Virus record (IMG/VR): IMGVR_UViG_2690316115_000011
Coordinates: 1-10,655 of that record
DNA from: a virus
Taxonomy: Duplodnaviria > Heunggongvirae > Uroviricota > Caudoviricetes
Strand: one strand, 5' to 3'
Length of the DNA: 10,655 nt
Shown here piece by piece: positions 5,738 through 8,700 of this stretch. Made by a program: the position numbers. Positions within the stretch are counted from its first letter, which is position 1; every line of letters begins with the position of its first letter.

Positions 5738-8700
5738 TTAAATCTATCACCGCAAGGGATAAATATCTAACACCGTGCGTGTTGACTGTTTTACCTCTAG
5801 CGGTGATAATGGTTGCATGTACTAAGGAGGTTGTATGGAACAACGCATAACCCTGAAAGATTATGCAATACGCTTTGGGCAAACCAAGACGGCTAAAGAT
5901 CTCGGCGTATATCAAAGCGCGATTAACAAGGCCATTCATGCAGGCCGAAAGATTTTTTTAACTATAAACGCTGATGGAAGCGTTTATGCGGAAGAAATAA
6001 AGCCCTTCCCAAGTAACAAAAAAACAACTGCATAAGTAACACCGCTCTTTTCACAATGGACATTCGTCCTACGTCGCTGACAAAGCGAGTCCCAAGATAT
6101 CTGACCAACTAAGGCCATATGCGTTTCCACGCATACCTTTCAACTAGCTATTCACTATTGGAAATCATAAGAAATGACACAAACAAGTTACAGCAAACTA
6201 TCCCAGCGTGACGTTGATCGCGCAGAAACAGATTTACTCATCAACCTGTCAGCTCTGACGCAAAGGGGACTGGCAAAGATGATTGGCTGCCATGAATCGA
6301 AGGTCAGTCGTACCGACTGGCGATACATCGCGGCGATTTTATGCGCGTTCCAGATGGCATCTGATATCAGTCCGATCAGCCGGGCTTTCCAGCATGCCAT
6401 TAACGTTCATGCAAATAAAAAACGTCCGGTTGGGGCCGGACGTTCTGAGCAAATCCTGATGAATATCTGATATTCAGGCAGGGCATGGAGCAATACACGG
6501 GAATAATTCTGCCACATCTGGAAGAATTTCGCCAGCAACAACACCAACCGCAGCAGCCTGAAGCCGATTGGGTTAACCCGGAGATACCGGGACCGTCTGT
6601 GAAGATGTGCAGTCACACCAATGTGCAGTCACACCAACCGCAGCAGCCTGAAGCCGATTGGGTTAACCCGGGAGATACCGGGACCGTCTGCGGTATGGAG
6701 TAAATCTTGTATGCGAGGGGACTATGCGTAATTACGCAACAATTTCACCTCAGTTCTGGTTAGGCGATACAGGGCGAAAACTAAGGAAGTCTGGTCCGGA
6801 ATGTATGGTAGTGGCGTTGTATATGATGACCTCGCCTCATTCCAATATGCTGGGCCTTTATTACCTGCCTGTTTTGTACATTGCTCACGAAACCGGACTT
6901 GCTCCTGAAGGGGCTTCTAAGGGGCTTCAAATGGCTTGCGAGGCTGGTTTTTGCAGCTATGACCATGATTCTGAGGTTGTATGGGTGCATGAAATGGCAG
7001 CATGGCAGGTTGGTGAATCGCTGAAACCTGGCGATAACCGTTGTGCTGGGGTAAGAAATGAATATTCCGCGTTGCTGGAAAATCCTTTTTTATCATCCTT
7101 TTATGATAGATATAAGGATGATTTCCACCTGGATGTCAGACGTGAATCATGTCGGAAAATTGAAGCCCCTTCAGAGCCCCTTTCAAGCCAAGAACAGGAA
7201 CAGGAACAGGAAAGGGATAAAACCCTTCTGGTCCATGGCGAAAAAATCGCCACGGACCCACAGGGGGATTTTTGTCCTGTTCTGACTGAACGTCCAGGAC
7301 CAGCTGGCACGACACCGGAAGCAGATTCCGGGCGTTGTGTGCAGCAGGTGCTGATCGTCGAACCGGAGCAACAACGCCAACCGCAGCAGCCTGAAGCCGA
7401 TTCCGCGATGAGCGGGAAGCCGATTGGGTTAACCCGGGCGATGCCGGGACCGTCTGCGGGACGAGTTGATTATCCTGACGTGTTCGAACGGGTCTGGCGT
7501 GAATATCCGCATCGGGCAGGGTCAAACCCGAAGAAATCCGCGTTCAATGCCTGGAGGGCCAGATTACGCGAAGGGGTGTCACCGGATGTCGTGCTGGATG
7601 GCGTGAGGCGTTACGCAAGATACCTGGAGGCTACCGGGAAAGCGGGAACTGAATTTGTTCAGCAGGCATCGACGTTTTTTGGCCCGAACAGGAATTTCGA
7701 AAATCCGTGGTCGCTGCCGAAGGCTGGCGCAGTCAGCCTGCGTTGCGTGAATCACATTTCTGAACCGGACACCGAAATTCCGCCGGGTTTCAGGGGGTAA
7801 TCAGCCATGAAAAACATTTCGACTGGAGGGATTCTTGAACGGGTGCGCCGTCTGGCACCACCGCACGTGGCAGCACCGTTCCGGACGACCGACGAATGGC
7901 GGGAATGGCAACTGGCTGAGGGCCGTAAGCGCAGCGAGGAAATTAACCGCCTGAATCATCAGGCGCGGGTTGAAAAAATCCTGAACCGTGCGGGCATCCA
8001 GCCGCTTCACAGGAAGTGCTCATTCGGGAACTACCGGGTGCAGAACGACGGTCAGCGCCATGCTCTGAGCCAGGCGAAATCCATTGTCGATGAATTGATG
8101 ACCGGTTATACAAACTTCGTGTTCAGCGGGAATCCGGGAACCGGAAAAAATCATCTGGCGGCGGCTGTGGGTAATCGTCTGCTGAAGGCCGGTAAATCCG
8201 TGATAGTGGTCACCGTGGCGGATGTGATGAGCGCGTTACATGCCAGCTATGACGACGGACTGTCAGGGGAAAAATTTTTGCGTGAACTGTGCGAAGTGGA
8301 CCTCCTGGTTCTTGACGAAATTGGCATCCAGCGTGAGACGAAAAACGAGCAGGTGGTACTGCACCAGATTGTTGACCGCCGGACGGCATCACTGCGCAGT
8401 GTCGGGATGCTGACAAACCTGAATCATGCCGCAATGAGCACGCTTCTTGGTGAGAGGATTATGGACCGGATGACCATGAACGGTGGTCGTTGGGTGAATT
8501 TTAACTGGGAGAGCTGGCGGTCAAACGTTGGACGTCAGGGTATGTGAGAATTTTTGACGAGGTAAATTTTCGATGGAAACCGTATTACATGCACTGAAAG
8601 CGATGGGAAAAGCCAATTCTGTTGAACTGGCGGCACGACTTGATATCAGCCGTGAAGAAGTTCTCAACGAACTGTGGGAGCTCAAAAAAAATGGCGTTGT

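Follow-up and report, generated by a model that had tools for sequence, protein, structure and literature searches.

The 10,655-nt stretch of viral DNA analysed here (IMG/VR record IMGVR_UViG_2690316115_000011, positions 1 to 10,655; hereafter the window) is a lambdoid prophage carrying a replication initiator gene of the replisome-organiser type. The original prediction had placed a candidate replication origin in a repeated sequence module at 7367–7459, within the part of this gene that encodes the interdomain linker. Our results point to a different site in the same gene. We consider it likely that the linker-coding module is a by-product of recombination and that a pair of 11-bp repeat clusters forms the origin. 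The most likely candidate, judged from the DNA sequence, spans 6907–7183, inside the initiator gene. Location of the origin in this gene, as originally proposed, is thus very probable, and the second cluster lies where the linker begins; the choice of the module as the origin did not hold. The features that make up the candidate are the following.

6724–7800, plus strand: initiator gene (replisome-organiser type), 358 aa.
6907–6928, plus strand: iteron cluster 1, GAAGGGGCTTC TAAGGGGCTTC, period 11 bp, encoding the invariant EGASKGL.
7078–7128, no strand assigned: AT-rich stretch between the clusters (GC 0.25–0.35), candidate unwinding region.
7162–7183, minus strand: iteron cluster 2, GAAGCCCCTTC AGAGCCCCTTT, the same motif inverted, encoding EAPSEPL.

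The two clusters are 255 nt apart and lie 185–460 bases upstream of the in-gene module; a 23-nt inverted repeat (6908–6930 with 7160–7182) came from the same repeat search as the module. In all 38 distinct homologue loci, the 9-mer core of the motif, AAGGGGCTT, was found at gene positions +185, +196, +440/441 and +451/452, at times with a further site at +463; elsewhere in each ~3.4-kb locus only scattered single matches with one mismatch were seen. The three distant N-domain homologues compared all carry GAAGGGGCTTC with the 11-bp period; their two clusters are likewise ~255 nt apart, and the positions in the gene are those of the window. The two-cluster layout recurs in three more distant phages, namely E. 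coli phage Fraca, Ralstonia phage NK-7 and one from Acinetobacter, and is thereby seen in Acinetobacter, Ralstonia and Hendrixvirinae phages. In Acinetobacter phage YMC/09/02/B1251 (locus L132, ~1165–1186), an extra inverted 11-bp pair is present at −37/−26, in the non-coding DNA that precedes the initiator gene. The annotated initiator coding sequence of this phage (1468–2094) begins ~89 codons late; the homologous open reading frame (ORF) begins at 1201.

The orientation of cluster 2 differs between lineages. It is direct, with peptides such as EGASKGL, in the homologues from Klebsiella, Salmonella, other E. coli prophages and phage Fraca, and inverted, with peptides such as EAPSEPL, in the window-type, Burkholderia, Acinetobacter and Ralstonia homologues. 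As this flip alters the encoded peptide, we concluded that the conserved entity is the DNA motif and not the peptide. Comparison of six diverged genes showed identical codons at 5 of 7 amino-acid-invariant sites in cluster 1 vs. 9 of 54 elsewhere (Fisher p = 0.005). When the window was scored with a weight matrix derived from the sites of the family, its four sites reached 16–22 bits and the next best in the 10.6 kb only 8.1. EGASKGL, for which two copies of the putative binding site provide the coding sequence, is located at the start of the predicted recognition helix in the AF2 model. Protein and DNA constraints would then coincide on the 22 bases of 6907–6928, and the site would be a clear case of a coding sequence shaped by the DNA site that its own protein probably binds.

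The motif also changes with the protein. Phage Tritos has an initiator with an unrelated N-domain, and its gene (L003, 1984–2022 and 2244–2292) contains GTCACG repeats with a 10–11-bp period, arranged in two clusters 260 nt apart and followed by (GATAAAGATACA)x2. Since a different motif occurs there in the same layout, the repeat motif co-varies with the DNA-binding domain. A (GAACAG)n repeat of 3–9 units lies directly 3′ of cluster 2 in every homologue, from E. coli to Ralstonia (L041, L043, L045, L080, L132–L134). In the window it reads, as had been correctly reported, (GAACAG)x3 at 7192–7209 on the plus strand (encoding QEQEQE), within a wider run, AAGCCAAG(AACAGG)n at 7185–7212, that encodes SQEQEQEQ. 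This run may be part of the origin, as a spacer or unwinding element, more than an acidic linker. Low GC content (0.25–0.38) at +341..+400 is found in the E. coli, Klebsiella and Salmonella members; the stretch codes, in addition, for an F/Y/K-rich peptide that is conserved. In the window, the AT-rich stretch contains an inverted repeat of 13 bp, imperfect, at 7092–7122; as a functional dyad it was rejected, being unconserved in relatives.

The module for which an origin function had been proposed is a repeat of ~60–90 nt, and its description from the window alone was largely accurate. The stretch at 7367–7459 is indeed a third copy, the other two being located upstream of the initiator gene:

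6534–6602, plus strand: module copy 1, upstream, short form; frame shifted by a 1-nt deletion in the dyad region (CCCGGAGATA).
6605–6636, plus strand: 16-nt tandem duplication, ATGTGCAGTCACACCA x2, joining both upstream copies and part of a 90-nt tandem unit.
6624–6693, plus strand: module copy 2, upstream, short form; its end lies 20 nt before the initiator's Shine-Dalgarno sequence.
7367–7459, plus strand: module copy 3, in-gene, long form; encodes the linker part QQRQPQQPEADSAMSGKPIGLTRAMPGPSAG.

The three copies share 92–97% identity over common blocks of 36 and 49 nt and are spaced 90 and 766 nt apart, which places the upstream copies 766 and 856 nt from the in-gene one. GGGTTAACCCGG occurs exactly three times in the window (6570, 6660, 7426), with 0.03 occurrences expected and none of 200 shuffles reaching three; GAAGCCGATT occurs five times, one of them mismatched (6560, 6650, 7318, 7393, 7416; 0/200 shuffles). 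Copy 3 contains the palindrome GGGTTAACCC at 7426–7435 and the dyad arms CCCGG (7433–7437) and CCGGG (7444–7448). The spacer between the arms is GCGATG in copy 3, GAGATA in copy 2 and AGATA in copy 1, so that the palindrome and inverted repeat are kept with differing spacers, as noted before. The reading frames differ as well: the peptides have QPQQPEAD in common and then continue as WVNPEIPGPSV (copy 1), WVNPGDTGTVCG (copy 2) or SAMSGKPIGLTRAMPGPSAG (copy 3). The extra 23 nt of copy 3 (7403–7425, equivalently 7393–7415) do duplicate GAAGCCGATT, which is found there at 7393–7402 and 7416–7425, 23 nt apart, the only two inside the module. They had been taken for an insertion, but related initiator genes carry the long form, and strain 23CRST049 has three long-form copies upstream. 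For this reason it seems best to interpret the short form upstream as the product of a 23-nt deletion between the two GAAGCCGATT, the long form being ancestral.

To see what the module travels with, its occurrence among relatives can be sorted into four classes:

Class A, the window: this N-domain family; module with GGGTTAACCC and one to three upstream copies.
Class B, L079/L080 (E. coli prophages): same N-domain family, 78% identical; Tritos-type linker with three or four GAAGCCGATT units and a CCCGG..CCGGG dyad, without GGGTTAACCC; no GAAGCCGATT upstream of the gene (as read in the L080 upstream region).
Class C, L102 (Klebsiella-type): same N- and C-domain families; short linker with no GAAGCCGATT or other module repeats.
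Class D, phage Tritos: unrelated N-domain; class-B linker and C-domain.

Tritos and many E. coli prophages have the linker and C-domain in common with the window from ~7305 on (82% nucleotide identity). The distribution over classes A–D indicates that the module goes with the linker and C-domain and not with the DNA-binding domain, and the L102-type relatives indicate that initiators with the same N- and C-domain families can do without it. The reverse would be expected of an origin, which should co-vary with the DNA-binding domain. The 19-mer core of the module is confined to E. coli/Shigella prophages, always in the class-A arrangement; a search of one genome per species returned three matches in unrelated metagenome bins, which is about chance level.

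These results bear directly on the proposal that the module, the in-gene copy above all, is the origin or an initiator-binding site and that GGGTTAACCC and the CCCGG..CCGGG dyad are recognised. Its position in the linker-coding part of the initiator gene resembles that of oriλ, its DNA is conserved among copies despite the differing reading frames, the dyad arms are invariant around a varying spacer, and GAAGCCGATTC agrees with GAAGCCCCTTC, the inverted form of the 11-bp repeat, in 9 of the 11 positions. We nevertheless regard such a role as very improbable, given that the module is present with the unrelated N-domain of Tritos and absent with the same N-domain family in the L102-type relatives. 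The palindrome GGGTTAACCC is absent from the class-B (L079-type) and class-D (Tritos-type) linkers and is gone in the nearest outgroup. There is one copy in the gene, and the spacing of 90 and 766 nt does not bring the copies into helical phase. GC content across 7350–7500 is 0.60–0.67, and the profile contains no AT-rich stretch next to the in-gene module, a weakness that the original prediction had itself pointed out. As a λ-type origin, the module thus lacks helically phased in-gene repeats, an AT-rich neighbour and co-variation with the DNA-binding domain, and a far better candidate, the pair of 11-bp clusters, lies in the same gene. Scored with the weight matrix of the family, the GAAGCCGATT 10-mers of the module gave 6.1 and 3.5 bits, i.e., background; the idea that GAAGCCGATT is a degenerate 11-bp repeat, prompted by the 9/11 match to the inverted repeat, was rejected on this score.

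The module was also examined for constraint on its sequence. In comparison with Tritos, its first half (same frame, QPQQPEADSA) is 88% identical and its palindrome/dyad half 72%, vs. 74% at third codon positions of the C-domain; the palindrome/dyad half diverges at the synonymous-site rate. Nucleotide conservation beyond what the protein needs, which had been suggested as a check, could be read from the first half, but this half keeps its frame, and the dyad half does not exceed the synonymous level. Between two compensating 1-nt indels the reading frame of the module differs from that of Tritos, and the peptide is therefore unconstrained here, which says nothing of constraint on the DNA. The 25 class-A loci differ by <6% across 6253–7580 and are too close for a conservation test, which has no power among them.

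Several observations weigh against the account favoured here. The AT-rich dip is missing in Burkholderia (GC 0.55–0.60). Within the window alone, the count of one-mismatch 9-mers is not significant (5 vs. 2.5 expected), and it is the comparison with relatives that carries the case for the clusters. Upstream copies have been kept in ~100 E. coli genomes and several isolated phages despite the risk of origin deletion, and this persistence could hint at a benefit. Moreover, the CCCGG/CCGGG arms are invariant in 18 of 18 in-gene variants with the loop as a hotspot of change, and 6 of 6 substitutions in the predicted stems keep pairing via G-U, so that a hairpin may be under some constraint. The former pattern is in line with the earlier suggestion of selection on the dyad and not on the peptide; it is, however, not statistically distinguishable from chance, and the synonymous-rate divergence of the dyad half speaks against that suggestion.

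The invariant 5-bp GC stem and the pairing-preserving substitutions also favour a different role, in which the module is a selected cis-acting hairpin, in pR mRNA or in single-stranded DNA during replication, that travels with the linker/C-domain and whose upstream copies tune initiator expression or priming. Predictions for copies 1–3 and for Tritos give the same multi-stem fold, with 99% of cells pairing over 13 variants. All six stem substitutions are one-sided (C-G to U-G, G-U to G-C), transversions and indels fall in loops and junctions, and copy 2 ends close to the ribosome-binding site of the initiator. We find this role unlikely. The module is not predicted to fold more stably than its shuffled versions (z −0.6 to −1.1), and no compensatory changes were detected in the predicted stems among the 13 variants, where the shuffle control was without power. 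By our own estimate there is a ~0.06 chance that six such transitions all keep pairing, and the contrast in conservation is circular, as the structure was predicted from the same sequences. An Rfam search of the module gave no match at E ≤ 1, the palindrome or the arms are disrupted in some upstream copies (L036, L012, L048), and the L102-type relatives do without the element. It seems doubtful, too, that the invariant GC hairpin and multi-stem fold are a functional cis element, in mRNA or single-stranded DNA, of the linker/C-domain half, with the one to three leader copies of this phage lineage setting initiator dosage or giving priming or loading sites that flank the origin.

The behaviour of the copies fits duplicated DNA that is unstable better than a functional site under conservation. 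Among the loci showing the whole arrangement, two upstream copies are present in 25, one in 6 and three (long-form) in 1. In strain 23CRST049, the variant GATGCCGATT is common to all four module copies, which argues for their concerted evolution. In E. coli SW07163 (L047, 2063–2474), a deletion between an upstream copy and the in-gene one removed the N-domain; what remains is cII, an initiator pseudogene without its N-terminus and an intact dnaC-like gene, and the candidate origin is gone. Because the duplicate sits just upstream of the initiator gene, recombination between copies removes both the origin and the DNA-binding domain. The window-type replication region is <6% diverged among 25 loci; this near identity indicates that the arrangement with upstream copies is young. 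The leader/module region 6471–6560 was found in 81 complete E. coli genomes, including the O104:H4 outbreak strains 2011C-3493 and HUSEC2011.

Recombination between the copies could also be the reason for their presence, if the direct repeats were kept as homology arms for swapping a cassette of N-domain and origin, or as sites for another phage or host replication-control protein. The copies bracket exactly the N-domain and origin segment (6693–7367), recombination between them occurs in nature, and the linker is common to initiators with unrelated N-domains. On the other hand, the junction between Tritos and L080-type initiators lies just after the low-complexity repeat 3′ of cluster 2 and not at the module, no upstream module copy was found in relatives outside the window-type, the sole recombination product observed is a defective pseudogene, and no candidate binding protein was found. 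We thus attach very little probability to either form of this explanation.

Under the favoured account, in which the module is most likely a recombination by-product, 7367–7459 would be ordinary, if unusually repetitive, coding DNA for the flexible linker between the N-domain and the DnaT-tailed C-domain. The linker DNA consists of ~23-nt units with GAAGCCGATT at the start and a short GC hairpin at the end. About 100 nt of it would then have been copied between cII and the initiator gene and tandemly amplified to one to three copies. Such copies may exchange by gene conversion, gain or lose units by slippage and unequal crossing-over, and recombine together. The module would be tolerated because a disordered linker accepts changes of frame and length.

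For the 11-bp clusters, we envisage that the N-domain binds the repeats on one helix face at 6907–6928 and 7162–7183. The ~230-bp stretch between the clusters would be distorted, and the AT-rich region 7078–7128 would open for helicase loading. The C-domain, with its DnaT-like tail, would recruit the DnaC-like loader together with DnaB. Transcription from pR through cII into the initiator gene may assist the opening. In phage λ, pR transcription helps the origin.

The candidate has several features in common with oriλ, which is located in gene O (with counterparts in phi80, gene 18 of P22 and the O genes of Stx phages). In both, the known or candidate origin is in the initiator gene near the boundary of the N-domain and linker, the repeats co-vary with the N-domain, the C-domain pairs (in the window, presumably) with a helicase-loading partner, and the gene follows cII and precedes the loader gene. 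The differences are clear as well. The initiator of the window is unrelated to λ O (no Pfam match, phrog_1701), its loader is DnaC-like and not λ P-like, and its candidate origin consists of 11-bp repeats whose two clusters, at a distance of 255 nt, flank the AT-rich stretch, in contrast to four 19-bp dyads followed by an AT-rich region in λ. The module shows none of the features of oriλ. Phage SPP1 G38P, with oriL inside gene 38, exemplifies a replisome-organiser origin of a Gram-positive phage and is related to the Pfam family Phage_rep_org_N (PF09681). The present system would resemble it in a winged-helix-type organiser, in having its own binding sites in two in-gene groups around a bendable or AT-rich stretch, and in the loader gene that comes next. 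Unlike in SPP1, the hosts here are Proteobacteria and the C-terminal tail is DnaT-like; the N-domain of the window has no significant match to PF09681, and that of Tritos only a weak one (E = 0.12).

As for the module, its closest parallels are the recombination scars and the tandem or dispersed duplications at lambdoid mosaic junctions, where short homology likewise links otherwise different modules, copy number varies, and direct repeats undergo gene conversion and deletion. The difference is that in the window an essential gene supplied the duplicated DNA, from its linker-coding part, and has the duplicate immediately ahead of it.

An origin inside the initiator gene is of a known kind; for this family, no published description of the origin was found in the literature searched, and the present candidate would be its instance. 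The flagged module proved ordinary, and checking it exposed a candidate origin for a widespread, uncharacterised initiator family. The family is represented in Stx-converting phages of the POCJ13 / 75/02 type from Shigella/E. coli, in ~100 complete E. coli genomes as part of prophages (with O104:H4 strains from the outbreak among them), and in phages of Klebsiella, Salmonella, Acinetobacter, Ralstonia and Burkholderia. The candidate origin offers precise targets for studying the replication of these Stx phages.

The initiator protein consists of three parts, a winged-helix-like N-terminal domain (aa 1–~140), a linker (~140–240) and a C-terminal domain (240–358). It has no Pfam match, and nothing useful was obtained from Pfam or NCBIfam. 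The protein was assigned to phrog_1701 ('DnaD-like helicase loader'). Its two halves, N- and C-terminal, match separate PHROG families. The N-domain is predicted to be winged-helix-like: its AF2 model (pLDDT 70) has a helix-helix-wing topology, and a Foldseek search of the model against the PDB gave weak matches only (E ≥ 0.007), nearly all of them to winged-helix regulators. Distant N-domain homologues from Klebsiella, Salmonella, Citrobacter, Acinetobacter and Burkholderia share 55–75% identity and are joined to different C-domains.

The other end of the protein is notable for its tail:

7747–7797, plus strand: C-terminal tail VNHISEPDTEIPPGFRG, nearly identical to the E. coli DnaT tail.

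These final 17 residues nearly match the C-terminal tail of E. coli DnaT, VNTVSEPDSQIPPGFRG (PDB 2ru8, 9zbt), and other members of the initiator family end in a similar way (…IPSGFRG, …IPFGFRG). The resemblance to the E. coli dnaT-dnaC operon lies in the SEPDxxIPPGFRG within the last 17 residues and in the dnaC-like gene that comes next; unlike in DnaT, the match is confined to the tail (E ~1e-3), and the remaining initiator sequence is unrelated. The role of the tail of DnaT (primosomal protein I) is not established in PMC13377028.

The initiator gene has the following neighbours:

5021–5734, minus strand: cI.
5835–6035: cro.
6174–6470: cII.
6485–6703, plus strand: 72-codon ORF, phrog_2751, consisting of little other than the two upstream copies of the module.
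7807–8547, plus strand: DnaC-like helicase loader (IstB_IS21 / Bac_DnaA ATPase).
8573–9343: DUF1627 protein.

The E. coli ML35 prophage is 100% identical to the window over the stretch searched (6470–7800). Over 6100–8600, phage PhiR5_2 is 99.5% identical and the Stx-type Shigella phages POCJ13 and 75/02 ~94%. The 72-codon ORF at 6485–6703 is probably not a conserved protein: its length and C-terminus shift with module copy number in relatives, and the annotation gives it 42 aa in strain EC2 and omits it in 23CRST049. A tblastn search with its 72-aa product gave matches solely in the same six phage records, which leaves the short N-terminal part without a traceable source. A promoter scan found none in 6000–7900, and the module is accordingly not an obvious promoter. 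A strong intrinsic terminator is present on the minus strand at 6419–6446, where cII has its 3′ end; its position is that of the terminator of the λ oop RNA. A weak, sub-threshold Rfam match to AgvB extends over 6417–6478.

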